Program-made: the position numbers and the translations under genes | Virus record (IMG/VR): IMGVR_UViG_3300032236_001858 | Direction: 5' to 3' (one strand) | DNA from: a virus | Taxonomy: Duplodnaviria > Heunggongvirae > Uroviricota > Caudoviricetes | Length of the DNA: 64,000 nt | Part shown: piece by piece, positions 3 to 47,038 of the stretch | Layout: every line of letters begins with the position of its first letter | Position numbering within the stretch: the stretch's first letter is position 1 | Notes under the pieces: model-generated | The model's database searches: none | What the model saw: the letters and a program-made list of their open reading frames with translations, nothing else | Told to the model about the DNA's origin: nothing

Positions 3-893
3 TCTTATATTGATGGTAATGTTAATTACAGTAATGGTTATAGATATGGTGGATTATATTTAGATAGTTCATCAATTATAGCTAGTGTTGATTTTAATGA
101 TGTTGGATTCCCTAATTGGAATGATAGTGAAAATGGTATCTACTTACATAACTCATCTTTTACTAATATATCTTGGAATGATGCTTATACTCAAAGAGTT
201 GTAGCTACTTCTTCTAATATTGATTCACTTACGTTATTAAGTAACTCTTATTTGGGATATGTTAATTTAAGTGATTCTAATATATATGCTAGTGAGTTAA
301 AAATATCATCATTGGATACAATATCTCTTAATAATGCTACCTGGTTTGGTTTATTCTTGAAACAATCTACTATATATGATTATAGACCATCGAGTGGGTT
401 AGATATTTACAATCTTGATATGACTGGTTCAGAATTTAACTTAGGTAATACATCAGATACTTATGATTTTAACGAAACATTTGCTCAATATAACACTATA
501 AAACATCAGTTCGAGTTTAATTTTAGTGGTTCAACTGGTAATGGTGCGGTTGGCTTAGTTGATATTCCAAGAGTTCTAGTACCTGGTGATTATTGGTATA
601 TAGAAAAAGTAATATTAGACTCAACTAACTTAACAACTTCTGGCACAGCTTCTTTAAGTTTAGGTATTCAAGATACCGATTCTGATTGTGGAGTTGACCA
701 TGCTCTTGTTAGTGATTTGAATAATAGAGTTAGAGTTTTTGATTTATCAAATGGCTTGGCGAATGGTGCTAAATCTTATTCACATGCTATTGACCAAATA
801 TCAATGAATGTTCACACTGCTAACATAACAGGTGGAAATATTAAGGTAGAAGTTACCCTTAAAAATACAAATTATTATAACAGCAATGACTAA
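3..893 (+). CDS. 3'-part of a tail-fibre-like structural protein (5' end lies upstream of the window)
   Basis: Frame 3 is open from position 3 with no upstream start in the window. The product is rich in Asn/Ser/Thr/Gly, like the other fibre proteins here. Its stop overlaps the next ATG (ATGACTAA), which suggests translational coupling. Confidence 0.5.
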   Translation, partial: SYIDGNVNYSNGYRYGGLYLDSSSIIASVDFNDVGFPNWNDSENGIYLHNSSFTNISWNDAYTQRVVATSSNIDSLTLLSNSYLGYVNLSDSNIYASELKISSLDTISLNNATWFGLFLKQSTIYDYRPSSGLDIYNLDMTGSEFNLGNTSDTYDFNETFAQYNTIKHQFEFNFSGSTGNGAVGLVDIPRVLVPGDYWYIEKVILDSTNLTTSGTASLSLGIQDTDSDCGVDHALVSDLNNRVRVFDLSNGLANGAKSYSHAIDQISMNVHTANITGGNIKVEVTLKNTNYYNSND

Positions 894-1647
894 TAAACAA
901 AACAAAGGTTCAAGAGGAACCCAGAGTATCAGCAAAAATTATAGTTTGACTACATCAGACTCAGCTACATTTAGTTATGAACAAGGTAATAACTTATTTA
1001 GTCAACAATTAGCTAGTAAAGGTATTACATTTAGTTCAATGACTGAATCTGTACCTAGAACACCTAAAGGTAAAACTCAAAGTGATTACAAGGGTTCTAC
1101 ATTCTCATATGATAAGAATTTATATTTGAGAACTAAGGAAAATACACCTCAAACTTTTACTTATAGTTTACAAAAAGGAACTCAAAGTCATGGTGTTACA
1201 CCAAGTCATAATCCTTTAAATTTTACTAAAAATACTTTATCATTTAGTAAGAAAACTACAACTACTGGTTATAGAGCATTCAGAGAAGGAGTGGGTACTC
1301 AAAGTCATTTTGAAGTTAAAACTCAAATGCTTAGAAGTACACCAAGTAACTTTTATGTAGCTGGAACCGTAAGTGCTGCTTTTAGTAGACCAAGTATTAA
1401 GAAGTTTTATATAAAAACTACAGATACAACACCTAAGTTAGATGCTAAATCTCTTGCTGAATTTGTTTCAACTTTATCTAAAACAACAACTGAAGAAGCC
1501 ACTAAATCAATAAAACTAAATAAAGTAACGGTTAATGGGAATTTAGTTACAGATCCTAATCACACGCTTGTTTCGGGTGATGTTGTTAGAGTTGGTTCGG
1601 TAGGACACTATGTAAATAACAATGAAGGGATAGCAATAGTAAAATAA
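886..1647 (+). CDS. Ser/Thr-rich hypothetical structural protein
   Basis: 253-aa ORF, translationally coupled to the upstream fibre-like gene and followed by a rho-independent terminator. Confidence 0.5.
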   Translation: MTNKQNKGSRGTQSISKNYSLTTSDSATFSYEQGNNLFSQQLASKGITFSSMTESVPRTPKGKTQSDYKGSTFSYDKNLYLRTKENTPQTFTYSLQKGTQSHGVTPSHNPLNFTKNTLSFSKKTTTTGYRAFREGVGTQSHFEVKTQMLRSTPSNFYVAGTVSAAFSRPSIKKFYIKTTDTTPKLDAKSLAEFVSTLSKTTTEEATKSIKLNKVTVNGNLVTDPNHTLVSGDVVRVGSVGHYVNNNEGIAIVK

Positions 1648-3961: not shown

Positions 3962-4930
3962 ATGATTAAAAGATATTTAGAGTTTATAAAAGAATCAAAT
4001 TATAATGGCTTTAACTCACTTGGTGAGTGGGTTGAAACTCTTATGGATGATGAGTATGTTAGAAACATAATCGCTCGTTATACAAAAGATTCTGATGCTT
4101 CTATTAATTTATCAAATGCTATTAATATCTTAGATGAGAAAGCTCAATCTGAAATTAAATCACAAATTGATAATTATTTACAAAATGGTATTGAAGAAAA
4201 AGAACCTCAGTTTTTAGTTTCAACTGATTTAGAAGAGTTAACAGAAGCACTTGCTGAAGAAATAACAATGGCTGGAAAAGGCATATTTACTTCTTTCTTA
4301 AAGGCTTTAACATCTTTAGGTCAAAAAGAAGTTGGACCAAATTGGTCTAAATGTCCAGATGACTTTTTACTATACTATTATTATCCTAATTTACAATCAG
4401 AACATGTAAAACAAGTATTTTCAAGATTTAAATCTTTAAGTAGATATTTGGACCACGTTGATTATCAAAAGAATGAAGTTGATTTATACTTTGGTATTAA
4501 ATGTGACGGCAATTTTGAATATGGTTTACATTATGATGAACCAACACCAATTGGTCAATTTAAACTAAATCAATCTGTTATTAAATGGATTTGTCAGATT
4601 GAATCTAAATCCGCTCATTCATTAAAGAAGGAATTAGTTAATTTAAGTTTAGCTGATGTAATGACATTGAGTAAGATTAAATTAGATATGAAAGACTTTA
4701 ATCCTGGGTTCCACGAGTCAAAAGATGTTGTGAAAATTCAAGATAAGATAATCTCTTTTGGTTACAAAGGTTTAGGTAAATGGGATAATGGTAAATTTGA
4801 TGAAGGTGAATTTATGAATATTAAAAATAACTTTACAACTTGGTTACTTACGAAGAAATGGGGTAGTAGAGTTTTAATTAGTGTTAAACCAACATCATAC
4901 TATGTTTACATACATATAAAATTAAAATAA
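3962..4930 (+). CDS. hypothetical protein
   Basis: The ORF track starts it at a TTG at 3923, placed inside the promoter-like motif. The first ATG is at 3962 (MIKRYLEF...). Confidence 0.5.
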   Translation: MIKRYLEFIKESNYNGFNSLGEWVETLMDDEYVRNIIARYTKDSDASINLSNAINILDEKAQSEIKSQIDNYLQNGIEEKEPQFLVSTDLEELTEALAEEITMAGKGIFTSFLKALTSLGQKEVGPNWSKCPDDFLLYYYYPNLQSEHVKQVFSRFKSLSRYLDHVDYQKNEVDLYFGIKCDGNFEYGLHYDEPTPIGQFKLNQSVIKWICQIESKSAHSLKKELVNLSLADVMTLSKIKLDMKDFNPGFHESKDVVKIQDKIISFGYKGLGKWDNGKFDEGEFMNIKNNFTTWLLTKKWGSRVLISVKPTSYYVYIHIKLK

Positions 4931-9255: not shown

Positions 9256-10665
9256 TTAGCAGTCGTAACAATCTACTGTTCCTCTACCACTACAATTATC
9301 ACATTCTACTGTACCATCTCCGTTACATTCTGGACAATCTGTTTCATTTCCCTCTTCATCTTCAATGTGACCTAATCCTTCACAATTTGAACAATCAACA
9401 CTTCCATCTCCACCACAATCGTCACATTCCATTCTACCCGTTCCGCCGCAAGTATCACAAGGTCTAACATAGTCACCACCTGTATCTTCTAAGAAATAAC
9501 AACCACCAGTATCTTCACTTGAAATAGTTTTTTTACGAGGATTGAAATATTTAAGTGTATCTAAGTAAGGGAAATTATCCATACTAGCATCAGTTAAATT
9601 AACCGTTAAATCTAAATTAACTCTACTTCCATCCGGTGCTACAGCTTGATTACTATCTGAACTATTATTATATTCTTTATAATACCAACCATTTTCTTTA
9701 GCATAATCTCTGAATAATTGAACATCTGAATCATTTACCGTATAAACTCTGTCTAAGAATTCTTTACCATCTCTTAACTTCCAAAGTAAAGCTCTACCAA
9801 CAATTTTTTCAGTATCATCCATTGATTTGTAAATAACTAAACCAACTTCTGGATTAGCAGTGTAAACTTCTAACCAACTATCTGGAGCACCAGCCATACA
9901 AGACGAACCTAAAGTCCCACTTCTTTGATAATAATTTGAGTTATGATACCAGTGAGCAATATCAGAACCCCTAACAACTTCAAAGTAAGAGAATTTATCA
10001 TTCATCTTATCAATAGTAGCTTTATATAAATTTACAAATTGTTCAAAATCTCTATCAGCAAATGTAGTAATACCAGCAGCTCTTAAAAGTGCTCTCATAG
10101 CTCTACCTACTTTTACTTCTTGTCTGTTTGTTGACCAAACTTTTTTAATTCTCTCATCAACAGCTCTTATCTTTTCAACATTATAAACACCTTGACCAAC
10201 ATCATTACCTGATTGGTCTTTGAATTTAACCCAAGCATAAGTTTTACCTGATTGTTCAGATGTTACTCTAGCAATAACCTCACCTAAATCTGTAGATTGT
10301 GGTTTATAAGGCTCAGAGCCTTCTTCAAATGTATAACCTAGTTGAGTAAATAATTTTGCATTTGAATCTTTGTGTTTTAACCAACCACCACCAGAACCGA
10401 TAAATCTAACTACTTCTTTAGTATCACCTAAAATCTCTTGAGCTTTTCTATCAGGAGTAAAAGTAATTGTATCGTTTTTTGTGAACTCAATATCAAGGTA
10501 ATTAGCTTGAACATTGTAGTCATTATTTTCAGCATCTAAAATAGCTTTCGCTACAGGGCTGTCAATCTTAGTCATTGCTTTTCTGAAGTTATCGGAATAA
10601 ACAACATTAGATTCTAGAATAAATTCTAGGTTTTCGTTTATAAAATCTGAATATTTTTTAATCAT
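9256..10665 (-). CDS. hypothetical protein with C-terminal DnaJ-type CxxCxGxG zinc-finger repeats
   Basis: The C-terminal 70 aa hold at least six CxxC(x)GxG units. The N-terminal 400 aa have no recognisable motif. The ORF track extends the start to a TTG at 10671. Confidence 0.55.
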   Translation of the reverse strand: MIKKYSDFINENLEFILESNVVYSDNFRKAMTKIDSPVAKAILDAENNDYNVQANYLDIEFTKNDTITFTPDRKAQEILGDTKEVVRFIGSGGGWLKHKDSNAKLFTQLGYTFEEGSEPYKPQSTDLGEVIARVTSEQSGKTYAWVKFKDQSGNDVGQGVYNVEKIRAVDERIKKVWSTNRQEVKVGRAMRALLRAAGITTFADRDFEQFVNLYKATIDKMNDKFSYFEVVRGSDIAHWYHNSNYYQRSGTLGSSCMAGAPDSWLEVYTANPEVGLVIYKSMDDTEKIVGRALLWKLRDGKEFLDRVYTVNDSDVQLFRDYAKENGWYYKEYNNSSDSNQAVAPDGSRVNLDLTVNLTDASMDNFPYLDTLKYFNPRKKTISSEDTGGCYFLEDTGGDYVRPCDTCGGTGRMECDDCGGDGSVDCSNCEGLGHIEDEEGNETDCPECNGDGTVECDNCSGRGTVDCYDC

Positions 10666-10693
10666 TTTCAACTATGTTATATTTTAAGATATA

Positions 10694-10715
10694 AGTATAT
10701 ATTAAATATATAAAC
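10694..10715. promoter_or_regulatory. TATATATTAA-type promoter-like motif in a divergent intergenic region
   Basis: AGTATATATTAAATATATAAAC lies between the divergent genes at 10665(-) and 10736(+). Confidence 0.35.
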
Positions 10716-10735
10716 TACAAAAAACAATTTTTAAT

Positions 10736-10924
10736 ATGCTAGAAATTAAAGTAGAAGGTGTTGGTATTGAAAAAGCCTTAAAAACACTTAAAAGAAAATT
10801 TGACAAAACTAAAACTCTTAGACAATTAAGAGATAGAAAAGAATTTGTTAAAAAATCAGTTAAAAGAAGAGCTGAAATAAACAAAGCTAAATATGTTCAA
10901 GAAAAGTTTGGTAACAACGATTAA
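10736..10924 (+). CDS. rpsU: ribosomal protein bS21 homologue
   Basis: 62 aa and basic. IKVEG..EKALKTLKRKFDKTKTLRQLRDRKEFVKKSVKRRAE aligns with bacterial S21 (IKVREN...ALRRFKR...R.REFYEKP..RKR). Confidence 0.65.
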   Translation: MLEIKVEGVGIEKALKTLKRKFDKTKTLRQLRDRKEFVKKSVKRRAEINKAKYVQEKFGNND

Positions 10925-11204
10925 GAATTTATTCAGTGATAATCAAAGAACATTTGATTTAGGTAAACTACAAAAGGTTGGTTTTATAAAACCTTTAGAA
11001 GATCTATCTGGTTGTCCTAATTGTAAAAGTAAAAACATATCTTGGAAGTTCTTTATACCAGTAGATGGCTCAAAACCTACACAACCATCTTTATCTATCT
11101 GTAAAGATTGTGGATATCAAGATATAAGAGGTGAATTTGAAAAAACAAACAAATCATTACTTAGAGAAAAGAAAATTAATAAGATATTAGATGGGATTCA
11201 ATAA
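10893..11204 (+). CDS. zinc-ribbon hypothetical protein
   Basis: Two CxxC pairs (CPNCKS ... CKDCGY). Confidence 0.4.
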   Translation: MFKKSLVTTIKNLFSDNQRTFDLGKLQKVGFIKPLEDLSGCPNCKSKNISWKFFIPVDGSKPTQPSLSICKDCGYQDIRGEFEKTNKSLLREKKINKILDGIQ

Positions 11205-11406
11205 GAGATATATTAATAAAGATAGTTTATTATCAGCCGCTTCTAATGGCTTAGATTATTTAATTAACTATGTAGTTAAGCCAGATGCTCTTATTATAGA
11301 GTCAGATGGTATATCACATCAAATTTGTGATATTGTTGGTCTTACAAAGGACAAAAGTGAGATGAAGAAAAAATTAAAAGAAATAGGATTCTATGAATTT
11401 GAATAA
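11191..11406 (+). CDS. hypothetical protein
   Basis: 71-aa ORF. Confidence 0.35.
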   Translation: MGFNKRYINKDSLLSAASNGLDYLINYVVKPDALIIESDGISHQICDIVGLTKDKSEMKKKLKEIGFYEFE

Positions 11407-12103
11407 AAATTATTATGCTATTCTTGGAGTTGATAATAACTCTGATGAAAAGACTATTAAAAAAGCTTATTATAAATTATCATTTACACATCACCCTGAT
11501 AAGAATGGCGATCCTATAGTTTTTGGTGAAATGACCGAGGCATATGATGTTCTTTGTTCTGATAAAAGAAAAGATTATGATGTTAAAAGTAGATTTGGTA
11601 ACAACTATAACGAATATTTTGAGTTATTTGATATTAAAATAGACTTTGACTATACTAAGGAAAAATCTAACTATGAAAAATTTAAGAAAAATGAGGTATT
11701 GGATATCTATATTAACATAGATGAGACTTTTGATGGCACCTTAGAATATGAAAGATGGGTTAAATGTAAAACTTGTGATGGTACTGGTAAGGATCTTTCC
11801 GCTAAAATTGTTATTAAAGACAATGATGGTAATATTATAAAAACTTTTGACGCTGATGATGGTTGTGATTTCTGTGAAGGTTCTGGTAAAGACTATAAAG
11901 GAGATGATTGTAATTTCTGTCAGGGTAAGGGTAAAGTAGGTTTAACACCTTGTAAAAAATGTAATGGAGAAAAAAGAATTTTAGGAAAGCAAAAGTTATC
12001 TGGTATTAAATTAACCGGAGATGAAACTAAAATAGAATCCATGGGTAATTGCTCTAAAGATATAGCTGGTATGGTTGGTTATCTTTTATTAAAAAAGAGT
12101 TAA
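11393..12103 (+). CDS. DnaJ-like co-chaperone (J domain plus CxxCxGxG zinc-finger domain)
   Basis: YYAILGV...HHPDKN is a J domain with the HPD motif. Four CxxCxGxG repeats follow. The stop overlaps the stop of the convergent gene. Confidence 0.75.
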   Translation: MNLNKNYYAILGVDNNSDEKTIKKAYYKLSFTHHPDKNGDPIVFGEMTEAYDVLCSDKRKDYDVKSRFGNNYNEYFELFDIKIDFDYTKEKSNYEKFKKNEVLDIYINIDETFDGTLEYERWVKCKTCDGTGKDLSAKIVIKDNDGNIIKTFDADDGCDFCEGSGKDYKGDDCNFCQGKGKVGLTPCKKCNGEKRILGKQKLSGIKLTGDETKIESMGNCSKDIAGMVGYLLLKKS

Positions 12104-19748: not shown

Positions 19749-20483
19749 ATGCAAAAGAAAAAGATATTGATTTTTACCGGAGCTGGAGTTTCTGCTGAAA
19801 GTGGCGTTGCTACTTTTAGAACAGGAGATGATGGGCTTTGGTATAATCACAAAGTAGAAGATGTTGCCACACCTGGTGGATGGCGTAGAGATAGAGAAAA
19901 AGTTCTTAATTTCTACAATATGAGACGTGCTCAACTTAAAGATGTTGAGCCAAACATAGCGCATAAAATAATTACCGATTTAGAAAAAGATTATGATGTT
20001 ACTGTTGTAACTCAGAATGTTGATGATTTACATGAAAGAGCTGGTTCAACAAATATAATTCATCTACACGGTGAATTAACAAAAGCAAGAGGTTGTATGT
20101 ATGAACATAAATCATCTGCTTTAGATAGTATTATTGATATAGGTTACGAACCGATTAAAATTGGTGATAAGTGTCCAACAACTGGTTCACAATTAAGACC
20201 TCATATTGTTTGGTTTGGAGAAGGATTAGATCAATCTGATATAGACAGAGCATCAGCAGCTGCTAATGATTGTAATATTTGTATTATTGTTGGTACTTCA
20301 ATGCAAGTAGCACCGGCTAATACTATTCCATTTTTAACAAAAGAATCAACTAACATTTACTATGTAGATCCATCTGATGCTGATTTTTATGTAGCAGAAT
20401 ATAGAAAAGAACTCTTCCACCACTATCAAGAACTAGCATCAACTGGAATGGTAAAAGTTATAGAAGATATAAAAAAATTATAA
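19749..20483 (+). CDS. Sir2-family NAD-dependent deacetylase / ADP-ribosyltransferase
   Basis: GAGVSAESGVATFR, QNVDDLHERAG and LHG motifs are present. 244 aa. Confidence 0.7.
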   Translation: MQKKKILIFTGAGVSAESGVATFRTGDDGLWYNHKVEDVATPGGWRRDREKVLNFYNMRRAQLKDVEPNIAHKIITDLEKDYDVTVVTQNVDDLHERAGSTNIIHLHGELTKARGCMYEHKSSALDSIIDIGYEPIKIGDKCPTTGSQLRPHIVWFGEGLDQSDIDRASAAANDCNICIIVGTSMQVAPANTIPFLTKESTNIYYVDPSDADFYVAEYRKELFHHYQELASTGMVKVIEDIKKL

Positions 20484-24987: not shown

Positions 24988-26097
24988 TTATTTTTTAAAT
25001 TCTTTTTTATCATTAGAAACATAAAAGTTATCAAAGTTGTAATATTTTTTATAGACTTCTTTAATCTTTTTCATATTAACATCATCTAGGATATCATAAA
25101 CTGACCAACCTTCTGGATTAATATATTGATTAACATTCTTATATCTAAGAATCTCGTCTTTTTCCATTCTTACTTTATAATAATCTTTAACAAGATTGAA
25201 TCTTTCTTTTGTTAAATACTTATCAGGATTTGTAATTACCTCTTTAACTGAATCAACTACACCATTAAAGTTTTTGTTAGAAGTTTGAGTTGAAATAGTA
25301 TTAATACCTTGATTATTAACTCTTGATAAATAACAATGTACATAATAAACTAAGCCTCTTTTTTCTCTAATTTCTTGATAAAGAGGAGATTTTAATCCTA
25401 ATGATAACATAGCATTAATAAAGTGAACATAAGCAAAATCCTCTTCAATTATTGGAGAAAGAATAGCAATAGATGTTTTATCTTTGAATTCATTACTTAA
25501 TTCCAAATCAACATCATGATTTCCAAATTCTAAAGTTTTCTTAATTTCTCTTTTAGCAAAATCAATAGTGTTGTTTTTATAAGGCTTGTTCTTAGAAACA
25601 TTAATGATTTTTGTTGGCTTAGCATATTGAAGTTCAAAAAAGTTCAAACAATCCATATACTTTAAGTTTTCCAAATCTTCTTTCAATCCAATTGGGTCAA
25701 AGTCACCAAATAATTTACGAGAAAGATTTAACATATGTGTTTGAGTTTGGTCATTAAAACAATCCATATACTCTTCAAGTACGATATTTCTTTCATTCTC
25801 AAATTGTTCCTTAGTAACATTAAATTCACCAAGTAAGTCCATAAACTCACCTTTCCACTTATTTACTTTTTCATCTAAACCTGTTAGATAGAAAACGATT
25901 TCATTTGAACTCGTGTAAGCATTCCAATCAATACCATCTTTATCAAAATCTTCTTGAAGATGATCAAAGTTTTTACACATTAAATGTTCCATTAAATGGC
26001 TAATACCATACCAACCTTTTTTCTCAAGGTTTGTTGAACCTTCATAAACTACATAAAAACCAGAAAGGTCTGTTTGAGATTTTAAATTTATTATCAT
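24988..26097 (-). CDS. M16 (pitrilysin/insulinase)-like zinc peptidase
   Basis: GISHLMEHLMCKNF carries the inverted HxxEH zinc-binding motif of the M16 family. Confidence 0.45.
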   Translation of the reverse strand: MIINLKSQTDLSGFYVVYEGSTNLEKKGWYGISHLMEHLMCKNFDHLQEDFDKDGIDWNAYTSSNEIVFYLTGLDEKVNKWKGEFMDLLGEFNVTKEQFENERNIVLEEYMDCFNDQTQTHMLNLSRKLFGDFDPIGLKEDLENLKYMDCLNFFELQYAKPTKIINVSKNKPYKNNTIDFAKREIKKTLEFGNHDVDLELSNEFKDKTSIAILSPIIEEDFAYVHFINAMLSLGLKSPLYQEIREKRGLVYYVHCYLSRVNNQGINTISTQTSNKNFNGVVDSVKEVITNPDKYLTKERFNLVKDYYKVRMEKDEILRYKNVNQYINPEGWSVYDILDDVNMKKIKEVYKKYYNFDNFYVSNDKKEFKK

Positions 26098-31048: not shown

Positions 31049-32959
31049 ATGGTAAATTTCATTAGTAATTATTGGTGGATAGGTGTTATCCTTCTTTGTG
31101 TAGTGATGTATAAATTCATCCTACGAATGTTCTTCGGGTTAGTTATTGTACCTGAAAGTAAAATTGGTCTTGTAACAAAAAAGTTTGTTCTATTTGGACC
31201 TAATAAACAGCTAAGCGGTGATCGTATTATTGCGGTTAACGGTGAAGCGGGTTTACAAGCTGAAATGCTTATGCCAGGTTTGCACTGGATGATGTGGCCT
31301 TGGCAGTATAACATTGATATGCAAGGATTCGTTGTAATCCCTGAAGGTCATATCGGTCTTGTATCATCTAAAGATGGTGCTGTTCCACAAACAGGTCGAA
31401 TCTTAGGTCGTAGAGTTGAGTGTGAAAACTTCCAAGATGCTGTTGCATTCTTAAAAAATGGTGGTCAAAAAGGTCGTCAAGCCGCCTTTATCCCAAATGG
31501 TGTTTATAAAATCAATACACACTTATTTGAAGTATCAACTGTTAAACAATCTACTATTCAAGAGAATATGGTAGGTGTTGTTACTACATTAGACGGTGAA
31601 CCATTAAGTACAGACCAGATTGCTGGTAAAAGTGTAGAAGGTCATAATAATTTCCAAGACTTTGATAAGTTCTTAGAATTAGGTGGTAATCGTGGTCTTC
31701 AACAACAAGTTATCTTAGCTGGTTCTTATAACTTAAATCCTTGGGCTGTTCAAGTTGAAGAAGTTCAAATGACAGAAATTCCTATTGGTCACGTTGGTGT
31801 TGTTATTTCCTTTGTTGGTGATGATGGTGTAGACGTTACTGGTTCTGATTTCAAACATGGTAACTTAGTTAGTAAAGGACAAAAAGGTGTTTGGGCTGAG
31901 CCATTTGGACCAGGTAAGTATCCAATCAACAAATATACTAATCGTATTGAGTTGGTACCTACAACTAACCTTGTTCTTAACTGGGCAACTGCTCGTACTG
32001 AGTCTCACAACTTAGATAAGAACTTGTCTACAATCACTGTTCGTTCTAAAGATGGTTTCCCATTCAATTTGGACGTATCTCAAATCATTCATATTCCTAT
32101 GAATGAAGCGCCAAAAGTAATTGCTCGTTTCGGTTCAATGCAAAACCTTGTATCACAAGTGTTAGAGCCAACAATTGGTAACTACTTCCGTAATAGTGCT
32201 CAAGATAGTGATGTAATTGCTTTCTTATCAACACGTCAATCTCGTCAAGATGCTGCTAAGAGTGCTATCTCTAAAGTATTGGATGAATATAACGTTCACG
32301 CTGTTGATACTTTGATTGGTGATATTACTCCACCAGAGTCTTTGATGAAAACCTTGACAGATCGTAAGATTGCTCAAGAACAAGAGGTGACTTTTGAAAC
32401 TCAAAAGAAAGCCGCTATCTCTCGTCAAACTTATGAGAAAGAAACTGCGATTGCTGACATGCAAGCAGAAGTTGTAAAAGCTGACCAAGGTGTTCAAATC
32501 TCTGAAAGACTTGCTGATGCTTCTGTTAAGAAAGCAACAGGTGAGGCTCGTTCAATCAAGATTACTGCTGAAGCTAATGCTGAATCAACTAAGTTGAAAG
32601 CAGAAGCAGATGCTACAAGAACATCACTTATTGGTAACGCTGAAGCTGAGGCCATCCTTGCAAAAGGTAAATCTACTGCTGAGGCATATAAATTAGCCGT
32701 TGAGGCGATGGGTAAAGAAAACTTTACTACATTTAAGGTCACTGAAGAGATTGGTAAAAATGGTGTGAAAATCATGCCTGACTTGTTAATCAACGGAGGT
32801 GGACAAAGCGGGAACGGTGCGATAGATGGATTATTGGGAGTTCAAATTCTTAATATGATGGGTAACCAAGTTAAGAACTTGAATGACACAACAGTGAAGT
32901 CAACTACAACTGATGCGCCTGTTGAAGACATTTCGGTCCAAACGAAAGGTAAGAAGTAA
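31049..32959 (+). CDS. SPFH/band-7 flotillin-like membrane protein (YqiK-like)
   Basis: N-terminal transmembrane helix, an SPFH core, and a long Ala/Glu-rich coiled coil (AQEQE...AEANAESTKLKAEADA...). Confidence 0.65.
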   Translation: MVNFISNYWWIGVILLCVVMYKFILRMFFGLVIVPESKIGLVTKKFVLFGPNKQLSGDRIIAVNGEAGLQAEMLMPGLHWMMWPWQYNIDMQGFVVIPEGHIGLVSSKDGAVPQTGRILGRRVECENFQDAVAFLKNGGQKGRQAAFIPNGVYKINTHLFEVSTVKQSTIQENMVGVVTTLDGEPLSTDQIAGKSVEGHNNFQDFDKFLELGGNRGLQQQVILAGSYNLNPWAVQVEEVQMTEIPIGHVGVVISFVGDDGVDVTGSDFKHGNLVSKGQKGVWAEPFGPGKYPINKYTNRIELVPTTNLVLNWATARTESHNLDKNLSTITVRSKDGFPFNLDVSQIIHIPMNEAPKVIARFGSMQNLVSQVLEPTIGNYFRNSAQDSDVIAFLSTRQSRQDAAKSAISKVLDEYNVHAVDTLIGDITPPESLMKTLTDRKIAQEQEVTFETQKKAAISRQTYEKETAIADMQAEVVKADQGVQISERLADASVKKATGEARSIKITAEANAESTKLKAEADATRTSLIGNAEAEAILAKGKSTAEAYKLAVEAMGKENFTTFKVTEEIGKNGVKIMPDLLINGGGQSGNGAIDGLLGVQILNMMGNQVKNLNDTTVKSTTTDAPVEDISVQTKGKK

Positions 32960-45208: not shown

Positions 45209-47038
45209 ATGATTGAACAATTAAAAGCGCAAATTATTAAGGCTAATGATGCCTATAGATTGGGTAAGCCAATCATATCCGATGCTAAATACGACCAATT
45301 AGTTGAGGAACTTCAAATGTTATCACCATCTGATGAAATACTTTCTAAAGTAGGTCATACAGTTGCTGATGAATCCCGCAAATCTCGTCTTCCTATAGAA
45401 ATGGCTTCAATGAATAAAATCAAGTCAATGGAAGATATCGAAGATTGGTCACGTCTTAAAGGTATTTCAAAATACGAATATGTTATTATTACTCCTAAGT
45501 TTGATGGTCTTTCATTATGTGTTAATGAAACAACATCCGAAGCTTGGACTCGTGGTGATGGTGTATTCGGCCAAAAATCAAATGAACACTACTCATTAAT
45601 TCAAAATCATCTTAACCTACAAGAAGATTCATTTAGCTTTACCTATGGTGAAGTTATGATGCCTAAACAAGTATTTGTTGATAAATACTCAGCAGACTTT
45701 GCTAATCCTCGTAATCTTGTTGCTGGTCTTTTAAATTCAAAAGATCCAAGTAATATTCTTAAAGATTGTCAGTATATTAAGTACGGTGCTATTTGTAAAA
45801 GAAACTTCTTTACTAAACAAAATGTTATTAATGAACTTAATAAAGGACAAGCATCAAAAGTACAATATCATATTTGTCAACTATCTGACTTATCAGAAGA
45901 CTTACTAATTGAACTATTCCATAAATTCTCTACTGAATATGAAATCGATGGTTTGATTATAGAATTAAACCGTCTTGAATTACAAGATCAGTTAGGTCGT
46001 GAAACATCTTCAAACAATCCTGTTTGGGCTCGTGCTTTCAAGCATCCAAGTTTTGAACAATCTGCTGAAACTGATGTTATTGGTATTTCTTGGAATATAT
46101 CTAAACAAGGCTTATTAAAGCCAATTCTACATATTAATCCTGTTAAACTAGATGGTGTAACCGTGTCTAATGTTACTGGTAACAACGCCAGATTCGTAAA
46201 AGACTTAGGACTTGGTATTGGTGCTAAAGTAGTCGTAAAACGCTCCGGAATGGTTATTCCAATCATTGCTGATGTTATCACCCCAGTTGAATTTGTTCAA
46301 CCTACAATTGAAGGTGTTGAAGTAGATTGGAATGAAGCTGGTATTGAGTTAATTACTTTAACTGAAACTGACGATCAAAAATTAAAAAAGATTGTTGCTT
46401 TCTTTGAAATCTTAGAAGCTGACAATGTGTCAGAAGGAGTTATCACTCAATTATGGGAAGCTGGTTACAAAACAATTAAAGATGTTCTTAATCTTAAAAA
46501 AGAAGATTTAGAGAAAATTGACCGTTTTGGTAAGAGAAAAGCTGAGATTGTTTTTAACTCTATTCAAAAGTCTGTTAGTGGTGTTCAGTTGTCTAAACTA
46601 CAACACGCAACAGGTATCTTCAAAGGATTAGGTTCTAAGAAATTAGTTCTTTTAGAAGATTTCAAAACTAAACCAACATTAGACCAAGTAATGTCAATTG
46701 AAGGATTTGCTGAAGTATCAGCTCAATCTTATATTGATTCATATGACACGTTCTTTGATTTCATTAAAGATTTACCTGTCACAATTATAGAAAAAGTAGA
46801 GGCGGTTAAAGTTGGCACAGACCTTGAAGGTAAATCATTTGTCTTTACCGGAGTTCGTAGACCAGATTTAGAATCTGTGATTGAATCTCGTGGTGGTAAA
46901 ATTGGTTCTGGTGTGTCTAAAACAACTACTCACCTTGTGATGAAGGCGATTGGTAGTGGCTCTTCTAAAGAAAAGAAAGCTATTGAGTTAGGTGTTGAAG
47001 TGATTACAATTGAACAATTAGAAAAAATGTTATCATAA
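45209..47038 (+). CDS. ligA: NAD-dependent DNA ligase (LigA-like)
   Basis: KxDG adenylation motif (ITPKFDGLSL), OB/HhH region, and a C-terminal BRCT (GKSFVFTGVRRPDLE...). Confidence 0.85.
   Translation: MIEQLKAQIIKANDAYRLGKPIISDAKYDQLVEELQMLSPSDEILSKVGHTVADESRKSRLPIEMASMNKIKSMEDIEDWSRLKGISKYEYVIITPKFDGLSLCVNETTSEAWTRGDGVFGQKSNEHYSLIQNHLNLQEDSFSFTYGEVMMPKQVFVDKYSADFANPRNLVAGLLNSKDPSNILKDCQYIKYGAICKRNFFTKQNVINELNKGQASKVQYHICQLSDLSEDLLIELFHKFSTEYEIDGLIIELNRLELQDQLGRETSSNNPVWARAFKHPSFEQSAETDVIGISWNISKQGLLKPILHINPVKLDGVTVSNVTGNNARFVKDLGLGIGAKVVVKRSGMVIPIIADVITPVEFVQPTIEGVEVDWNEAGIELITLTETDDQKLKKIVAFFEILEADNVSEGVITQLWEAGYKTIKDVLNLKKEDLEKIDRFGKRKAEIVFNSIQKSVSGVQLSKLQHATGIFKGLGSKKLVLLEDFKTKPTLDQVMSIEGFAEVSAQSYIDSYDTFFDFIKDLPVTIIEKVEAVKVGTDLEGKSFVFTGVRRPDLESVIESRGGKIGSGVSKTTTHLVMKAIGSGSSKEKKAIELGVEVITIEQLEKMLS

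Follow-up and report, generated by a model that had tools for sequence, protein, structure and literature searches.

A phage gene for ribosomal protein bS21

We analyzed a 64,000-nt stretch of DNA (hereafter the window) from the IMG/VR virus record IMGVR_UViG_3300032236_001858, which is classified in the Caudoviricetes. Within this window, a 62-amino-acid (aa) open reading frame (ORF), here called S21, follows a divergent intergenic spacer and leads a tightly packed run of four genes that ends with a J-domain protein (Table 1). A first-pass annotation made from the letters alone had described this ORF as a basic protein that aligns along its length with bacterial ribosomal protein bS21, and had proposed a profile search and a tree as checks. 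The profile searches upheld this description. By direct count the protein contains 20 K/R and 9 D/E residues. It matched Pfam PF01165 (Ribosomal_S21) with 44.5 bits (E = 1.3e-11, profile positions 6–53 of 55; gathering score 27) and the NCBIfam equivalog TIGR00030 (S21p) with 37.2 bits (positions 7–57 of 58; cut-off 28.95). Since both cut-offs were passed by a match that extends along the whole length and is far beyond chance, these data confirm that the ORF is a real bS21 gene.

The closest solved structure was the bS21 of the Flavobacterium johnsoniae 70S ribosome (PDB 7JIL chain z; 52.9 bits, E = 1.9e-13), in which residues 8–57 align without gaps to residues 7–56 of S21. The next matches were a second bS21 chain (9I5V) and then Lactococcus-type S21. 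An AlphaFold model of S21 contained helices at residues 11–25, 27–32 and 40–61 (predicted local distance difference test score, 76.5). A Foldseek search of the PDB with this model gave no significant match, as expected for a short extended protein, and a PHROGs search with the ORF matched zero families. Its close relatives in public sequence collections already carry the S21 label.

A scan of 185,579 species-representative genomes yielded 256 bS21 relatives, the best 80 of which were used as the bacterial set. All of these 80 were from Flavobacteriaceae or other Bacteroidota (Aureibaculum, Tenacibaculum, Dokdonia, Lutimonas and others), and they were at most 64% identical to S21 over residues 1–55. 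In the proposed tree, built by neighbor joining from 110 unique sequences, S21 was placed inside a clade of 33 in which every member was viral. The bacterial proteins formed a separate group, which was joined by three IMG/VR and two huge-phage sequences. The ranking of protein-database matches agreed with the tree: a phage-type tail, K(F/Y)(G/R)NND, was common to the top ~75 matches, and the highest-ranked named bacterial protein was 64% identical. The ratio of nonsynonymous to synonymous substitution (dN/dS) was 0.06–0.11 against the two closest relatives (IMG/VR contigs L086 and L087), with synonymous sites near saturation among the viral relatives behind this value of ~0.1. Judged by these comparisons, S21 was shown to belong to a bS21 lineage that circulates in viruses, and to be a full-length bS21 under strong purifying selection.

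Several results place this gene in a very large phage. An identical S21 protein was present on a 481,145-bp contig, and also on a Logan contig with the same neighbors. When S21 was used as a tblastn query, the nearest relatives in annotated collections were five unannotated 'uncultured phage' records of 634–735 kb. Two of these, LR756502 and LR745206, are complete phage genomes of 635–642 kb, and they share a gene order with the window and with IMG/VR contigs L086, L087, L088, L097 and L098: an SbcC-like ATPase, S21, a protein beginning MGFxKRYI, a J-domain/zinc-finger protein and a large minus-strand gene. In the closest syntenic relatives, SbcC is separated from S21 by a small ORF and a minus-strand gene for a Cys-rich protein. 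Amino acid identity of the window proteins to these relatives was 36–96% overall, and 43–80% for SbcC, S21, the DnaJ-like protein and the large minus-strand gene when compared with LR756502 and LR745206. A megablast search of phages with the 4-kb S21 region reached only the DnaJ gene (74–76%), and hence the relatives had to be found by protein-level searches. The window has a G+C content of 29.7%, and its PHROG matches include a phage-type SbcC, an NAD-ligase and a collagen-like tail fibre; most of the large ORFs scanned had no Pfam family. Since family scans of the window ORFs found no terminase or capsid gene, placement in the Mahaphage clade rests on synteny. Mahaphage genomes of more than 634 kb, which are the five 'uncultured phage' records above, had Bacteroidetes as their predicted hosts, with rpS21 used as a host marker (Al-Shayeb 2020, PMC7162821). 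Together these findings indicate a very large phage, with a Flavobacteriaceae-like member of the Bacteroidota as its most likely host.

Ribosomal protein genes on metagenomic 'viral' contigs can be cellular contamination (Mizuno 2019, PMC6375957). We therefore weighed whether S21 might be a host rpsU gene on a cellular or chimeric contig, or a recently captured passenger devoid of function. This is extremely improbable, as the gene order recurs in complete phage genomes and in other IMG/VR contigs, S21 clusters with viral sequences, the dN/dS value holds across viral relatives, no further ribosomal protein gene turned up in the window ORFs scanned, and the Shine-Dalgarno (SD) sequence of nearly all of the closest bacterial rpsU genes is missing here (see below). 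Cellular contamination was rejected on these grounds.

Ribosome-binding signature and Shine-Dalgarno contrast

In F. johnsoniae, bS21 residues Tyr54 and Ile55 contact A1534 and the 3′ tail of 16S rRNA; Tyr54 stacks on A1534 and sends the tail into a pocket of bS18/bS6, thereby occluding the anti-SD, and its conservation is unique to Bacteroidia (Jha 2020, PMC7797042; McNutt 2023, PMC9976891). Tyr53 and Val54 of S21 align with these two residues. Tyr occupied this position in 100% of the 80 bacterial sequences and in 93–100% of sequences in the viral groups. S21 thus has the Bacteroidia-type signature of a Tyr followed by a hydrophobic residue, and by this alignment would be a bS21 of the anti-SD-sequestering type. 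It also retains the invariant core of the family (I11, A14, L15, K16, K19–K21, F22, D23, T25, L31, R32, R34, K35, F37, K39, S41, R45, K50, A51 and Q55), and the helix core KRKFDKT of its N-terminal helix is the same as in the F. johnsoniae sequence.

Flavobacteriales rpsU carries an exceptionally strong SD sequence, and ribosomes that lack bS21, in which the anti-SD is free, prefer this mRNA, which results in autoregulation (Jha 2020, PMC7797042; McNutt 2023, PMC9976891). For each start codon, we calculated the energy with which the 25 upstream nt pair with the 3′ tail of 16S rRNA, and defined an extended SD as one of −13 kcal/mol or lower. An extended SD was found in 78 of the 80 closest bacterial rpsU loci (median, −18.6 kcal/mol), as opposed to 0 of 79 IMG/VR viral copies. 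The value for S21 was +1.3 kcal/mol, that is, no pairing. Because it has no extended SD, S21 would not be regulated like cellular Flavobacteriales rpsU. The lack of SD pairing extended to the rest of the window, where 2% of the 62 long genes reached −6 kcal/mol or lower, compared with 3% of random positions. Over most of positions −10 to −20 the leaders of the window genes contained 50–65% A (background, 36%) and were poor in G; such A-rich, G-poor leaders are in the style of Bacteroidota. The SD contrast between phage and cellular rpsU is a modest extension of known biology and was not reported for phage copies in the literature searched.

Among the 80 'bacterial' rpsU loci, an SD was missing only from L061 and L062 (CALODM010000026.1), the latter on a 243-kb contig of a 'Bacteroidota MAG' (metagenome-assembled genome). 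The tail of the L062 protein is phage-like (…KKYGAE), and this contig may be from a huge phage that was binned into the MAG.

From these results we consider it probable that the ORF is a functional Bacteroidia-type bS21 of a huge phage, and we propose the following mechanism. During infection, the phage protein would occupy the normal bS21 site on the 30S platform of the host, where bS21, as a late-binding and readily exchanged protein, could be replaced. Initiation on SD-less mRNAs is poor when ribosomes have no bS21 (McNutt 2023, PMC9976891). By keeping ribosomes 'replete', the phage protein would keep the anti-SD occluded and so allow efficient initiation on SD-less phage mRNAs. Since its own synthesis would not depend on bS21-free ribosomes, it would stand outside the autoregulatory loop of the host. 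Filling of bS21-free ribosomes would in turn damp translation of host rpsU, such that host bS21 would be progressively replaced. The phage bS21 would be produced from a transcript shared with two small proteins and a J-domain co-chaperone.

Some observations weigh against this interpretation. Even the closest bacterial bS21 is only 64% identical to S21, and the tree that groups S21 with viral proteins was built on ~62 columns without support values. Two prolines found in every one of the 80 cellular relatives (Pro5 and the Pro of KPSV) are Lys in S21, and the whole C-terminal tail (KFGNND, in contrast to the cellular (L/I)R(D/T)xEE) is unlike that of all 80; binding geometry could differ as a result of these changes. 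Positions 7, 9, 10 and 17 are also changed relative to all 80 cellular sequences. Moreover, the bS21 gene of LR756501 (L004, a 735-kb phage) keeps an SD (AAAGGAGG, −12.1 kcal/mol), indicating that SD loss is not universal among phage copies. Finally, we infer incorporation, exchange and all of the effects on translation. The LR756501 protein (locus 3977–4177) is bacterial-like, with the tail GLRKEEEDDK, and may represent a more recent capture from a host.

The substitutions in S21 could also be read as those of a specialised ribosome, in which the divergent surface of the phage protein (N-terminal strand, two lost prolines and KFGNND tail) would cause the 30S subunit to prefer phage transcripts. 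This role was proposed for phage bS21 previously (Al-Shayeb 2020, PMC7162821; Chen 2022, PMC9723584), and Francisella bS21 paralogues do alter which mRNAs get translated (PMC9578407). It is consistent with the lineage-specific changes at sites where the 80 cellular relatives do not vary, and with the conservation of the phage-type tail in many homologues. However, the KRKFDKT helix core is the same as in F. johnsoniae, whereas that helix diverges in the clades of Chen 2022, and S21 lacks the sort of N-terminal extension to which Al-Shayeb 2020 drew attention. Furthermore, host and phage mRNAs would both be SD-less with A-rich leaders, and we found no phage-specific leader motif in the window by which the two could be distinguished. 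Ribosome specialization is therefore possible but, in our judgment, rather doubtful for this protein.

The unusual tail and the two lost prolines would also suit a small basic RNA-binding protein that acts off the ribosome on phage or host RNA. A non-ribosomal association of bS21, proposed for the OLE ribonucleoprotein complex, has been reported (PMC12054373). Conservation of the rRNA-contact residues and of the Bacteroidia Tyr across the viral lineage is instead what is expected for ribosome binding, and an Rfam search of the window found 12 tRNAs as its only structured RNA family, with no leader or regulatory RNA near S21. We regard an extraribosomal role as very improbable.

Neighboring genes and the J-domain linkage

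The features of the locus, together with auxiliary genes found elsewhere in the window, are listed in Table 1.

Table 1. Coordinates of S21, its neighbors and auxiliary genes in the window
Feature	Position	Strand	Remarks
Cys-rich protein, divergently transcribed	9256–10671	−	469/471 aa (ATG 10665 or TTG 10671)
Divergent intergenic spacer	10666–10735		70 bp; separates S21 from the Cys-rich gene on the minus strand
Phage bS21 gene (rpsU homologue), S21	10736–10924	+	ATG 10736, TAA 10922–10924, 62 aa
103-aa CxxC...CxxC zinc-ribbon ORF	10893–11204	+	From the ORF list; zinc-ribbon matches below threshold
71-aa ORF (MGFNKRYI...)	11191–11406	+	14-nt overlap with each neighbor
236-aa J-domain protein	11393–12103	+	Last gene of the tightly packed four-gene run led by S21
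Sir2-family protein	19749–20483	+	Auxiliary gene; 155 bits
M16 peptidase, both halves	24988–26097	−	Auxiliary gene
SPFH/Band-7 protein	31049–32959	+	Auxiliary gene
NAD-dependent DNA ligase	45209–47038	+	Auxiliary gene

The start of the 103-aa ORF overlaps the last 32 nt of S21 (10893–10924). This ORF was kept from residue 1 and at the same offset in L086, L087 and L098 (69–76% identity), and it was called as a gene on the Logan contig. The conserved overlap suggests that translation of the two genes may be coupled. The 71-aa ORF had no family match in Pfam or PHROGs; its counterpart in LR756502 and LR745206 is the N-terminal part of a 144–151 aa protein located at this position. Because the ORFs of this tightly packed run overlap, our data suggest that S21 and the 103-, 71- and 236-aa ORFs are co-transcribed. 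A single terminator-like hairpin at 11235–11251 falls within the 71-aa ORF and is unlikely to be genuine.

The 236-aa protein contains a J domain (PF00226, 63.4 bits; gathering score 27.8) whose HPD motif lies at residue 34, and it also has three strict and one variant CxxCxGxG motifs that scored below threshold for PF00684 (DnaJ_CXXCXGXG; 25.9 bits, gathering score 32.7). It had no DnaJ_C match, and its score of 77.9 bits on the DnaJ equivalog TIGR02349 was far under the cut-off of 377. By these profile scores we classify it as a J-domain protein and not a DnaJ orthologue. It is the sole J-domain ORF in the window, and it occurs at the same position in LR756502, LR745206, L086 and L087 with 69–91% identity.

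The divergently transcribed Cys-rich protein consists of a conserved N-terminal region of ~390 aa followed by five exact CxxCxGxG motifs at residues 405–464. It has no J domain, and its PF00684 match (12.7 bits, E = 0.16) was below threshold. A search for its family returned 1,034 matches, all 'hypothetical' and on contigs of up to 635 kb. Many residues are invariant in this family, and the number of C-terminal CxxCxGxG repeats varies; fold comparison gave weak SH3-like and GNAT-like matches. Only two window ORFs contain at least two CxxCxGxG motifs, this protein with five and the 236-aa protein with three strict copies, and they bracket S21. The first-pass statement that S21 is flanked by two DnaJ-type zinc-finger proteins was therefore right in substance: both proteins bracket S21 and contain the motifs, but only one has a J domain, two small ORFs separate it from S21, and the zinc finger of the 471-aa protein is sub-threshold in Pfam.

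The spacer provides an A-rich leader without an SD directly 5′ of the S21 ATG. Its identity to L086 and L087 was 87–89%, as compared with 69–87% for the adjoining coding segments. At 10696–10712 the spacer holds a perfect 8-1-8 palindrome, TATATATT-A-AATATATA, that occurs nowhere else in the window and might serve as an operator or as a promoter element for both directions. The conserved spacer motif GTATATATTAAATATATAAA was not repeated elsewhere in the window and hence is not a general phage promoter.

S21 had been annotated as having its own promoter-like motif, which our scans did not bear out, although the spacer itself is conserved. A sigma-70-type scan found zero plus-strand sites in the spacer, and the regional count of sigma-70-like sites was not above that of shuffled sequences (16 versus 11.2 ± 2.7). 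The Bacteroidota −7 box, TAnnTTTG, was modestly enriched upstream of window genes (8 versus 3.7 ± 1.8) and absent from the spacer, which contained only the one-mismatch version TAnnTTTT at 10678. The T4-late-like TATAAATA motif was not enriched in the window. As S21 is the first gene after the spacer, a promoter would be expected there, and presumably the spacer carries promoters without a recognizable consensus. In LR756502 and LR745206, S21 is preceded by co-directional genes with overlapping stop and start codons, and thus a promoter-proximal position is not conserved in the clade.

We searched 83 viral loci (L086–L165 and L001–L004, with 5-kb flanks) and the 80 bacterial loci with a J-domain profile. 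A same-strand J-domain gene was present within 1.5 kb of S21 in 46 of the 83 viral loci, and none was found elsewhere in the 5-kb flanks. No bacterial locus had a J-domain gene near rpsU (0/80), where the flanks searched were 1.5 kb only. When the viral sequences were clustered at 70% S21 identity, 18 of 29 clusters showed the linkage. Eight of these had the arrangement of the window, with a protein combining a J domain and a zinc finger downstream of S21. The other 10 had Hsp20, a 268-aa J-domain plus DnaJ_C protein ~1 kb upstream, S21, PhoH and RNase HII. Eleven clusters, including those of huge phages LR756504 and LR756501, had no nearby J-domain gene. As the loci are phylogenetically related, these counts are not independent. 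No report of an S21/J-domain link in phages was found in the literature searched, and the main texts of Al-Shayeb 2020 (PMC7162821) and Chen 2022 (PMC9723584) do not mention DnaJ; the supplement of the latter lists a dnaJ gene in one phage genome.

This linkage raises the prospect of a chaperone-coupled module, in which the J-domain protein would direct host DnaK either onto the 30S platform or onto free bS21, and thereby drive exchange, late assembly or the coupling of phage translation to folding. Consistent with such a module, two J-protein architectures and positions were found, the single J-domain ORF of the window belongs to the overlapping run of S21 with its HPD motif intact, and McNutt 2023 (PMC9976891) offered the speculation that bS21 exchange is assisted by phage-encoded factors. 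On the other hand, the evidence is linkage among related loci, the association is missing from 11 clusters, and the S21/J-domain connection is unreported in the literature searched. Chen 2022 (PMC9723584) also lists Hsp20 and Clp in the vicinity of phage bS21, which would fit a generic host-takeover or proteostasis cluster. We judge a chaperone-coupled module to be unlikely. A more elaborate, two-part takeover module can be imagined. The co-chaperone, which adjoins bS21 in most viral lineages sampled and in two independent architectures, would recruit host DnaK to the 30S platform so that host bS21 is displaced and the phage copy takes its place, while the SD-less phage rpsU would silence the feedback of host bS21. 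This scheme is a long shot.

Other genes of the window touch on translation. A 253-aa protein (886–1647, plus strand) has a C-terminal S4 RNA-binding domain (PF01479, 25 bits; gathering score 22.8), and so another translation- or RNA-related domain is encoded by the same phage. The 12 tRNA genes are arranged in three arrays. At 59383–59649 (plus strand) there are three tRNAs of 84–88 nt with Lys anticodons (UUU, UUU and CUU) and a stem-loop in the variable region, making them class II-like; a fourth, adjacent Lys tRNA (59303–59376) is an ordinary 74-nt tRNA-Lys. Long variable arms are unusual for tRNAs with Lys anticodons. Such tRNAs might be recoding tRNAs or decoys that resist anticodon nucleases.

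Comparison with known systems

To our knowledge, bS21 is the commonest virus-encoded ribosomal protein, and we know of no natural host in which an effect of a phage bS21 on translation has been demonstrated. Phage bS21 itself is already established, having been described by Mizuno 2019, in huge Bacteroidetes phages by Al-Shayeb 2020, and in detail by Chen 2022. The first-pass view that virus-encoded S21 is known from a few phages was an underestimate, as 900 published bS21-encoding phage genomes were profiled in Chen 2022 (PMC9723584) and the number of such phages was put at thousands by Trautmann & Ramsey 2022 (PMC9578407). Transcription of phage bS21 together with late genes was also reported (Chen 2022, PMC9723584). 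Only the SD contrast and the J-domain linkage go beyond the literature searched.

No new category of gene comes with this locus, but the comparison gives a sharper model for Bacteroidota, one that can be tested. Because the extended SD was dropped, viral copies should be made whatever the bS21 status of the ribosomes, and they should shut off translation of host rpsU. The linked J-domain co-chaperones are a concrete candidate for the 'exchange factor' speculated by McNutt 2023 (PMC9976891). For both ideas the means of testing already exist in F. johnsoniae: a depletion strain, an rpsU'-gfp reporter and in vitro initiation assays.

The closest known counterparts are the bS21 proteins of Mahaphages LR756502, LR745206 and LR756504 (Al-Shayeb 2020, PMC7162821). 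These are also encoded by huge phages with predicted Bacteroidetes hosts, are 62–65 aa long and 50–59% identical to S21, and have no SD. LR756502 and LR745206 share the S21 neighborhood of the window, from SbcC to the large minus-strand gene. They differ in that the window S21 comes first after a divergent spacer and has the extra 103-aa zinc-ribbon ORF inserted behind it, and LR756504 differs in having no J-domain gene near S21.

The bS21 proteins of freshwater Bacteroidetes phages (Chen 2022, PMC9723584) resemble S21 in having an aromatic residue at the Tyr54 position, in standing apart from bacterial bS21 and in having a tail that is conserved within phage clades. Those genes are inside a structural module (TerL, major capsid protein and prohead protease) of phages of up to 331 kb and encode a divergent N-terminal helix, whereas the window S21 lies between SbcC-type and J-domain genes and has the host-like helix core KRKFDKT.

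S21 shares its length class, gapless alignment, Tyr54/Ile55 equivalents, KRKFDKT and basic core with the bS21 of Flavobacteriaceae, including F. johnsoniae (7JIL). Unlike F. johnsoniae-type rpsU, it has no extended SD or autoregulatory element, and it has two Pro-to-Lys changes, the KFGNND tail and a linked J-domain gene.

Pelagibacter phage HTVC008M also encodes a bS21, and this protein was incorporated experimentally into 70S ribosomes in E. coli (Mizuno 2019, PMC6375957); in the literature searched, no other phage bS21 has experimental support of this kind. The host of that phage is of an alphaproteobacterial type with different SD usage, and its bS21 was not detected by tblastn with the S21 query at E ≤ 1e-3. 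The bS21 paralogues of Francisella tularensis (Trautmann & Ramsey 2022, PMC9578407) are chromosomal, gammaproteobacterial and non-viral, and do not operate through anti-SD sequestration. However, they give rise to heterogeneous ribosomes with altered mRNA choice, and in this respect they are the nearest experimentally studied functional analogue of the phage protein.

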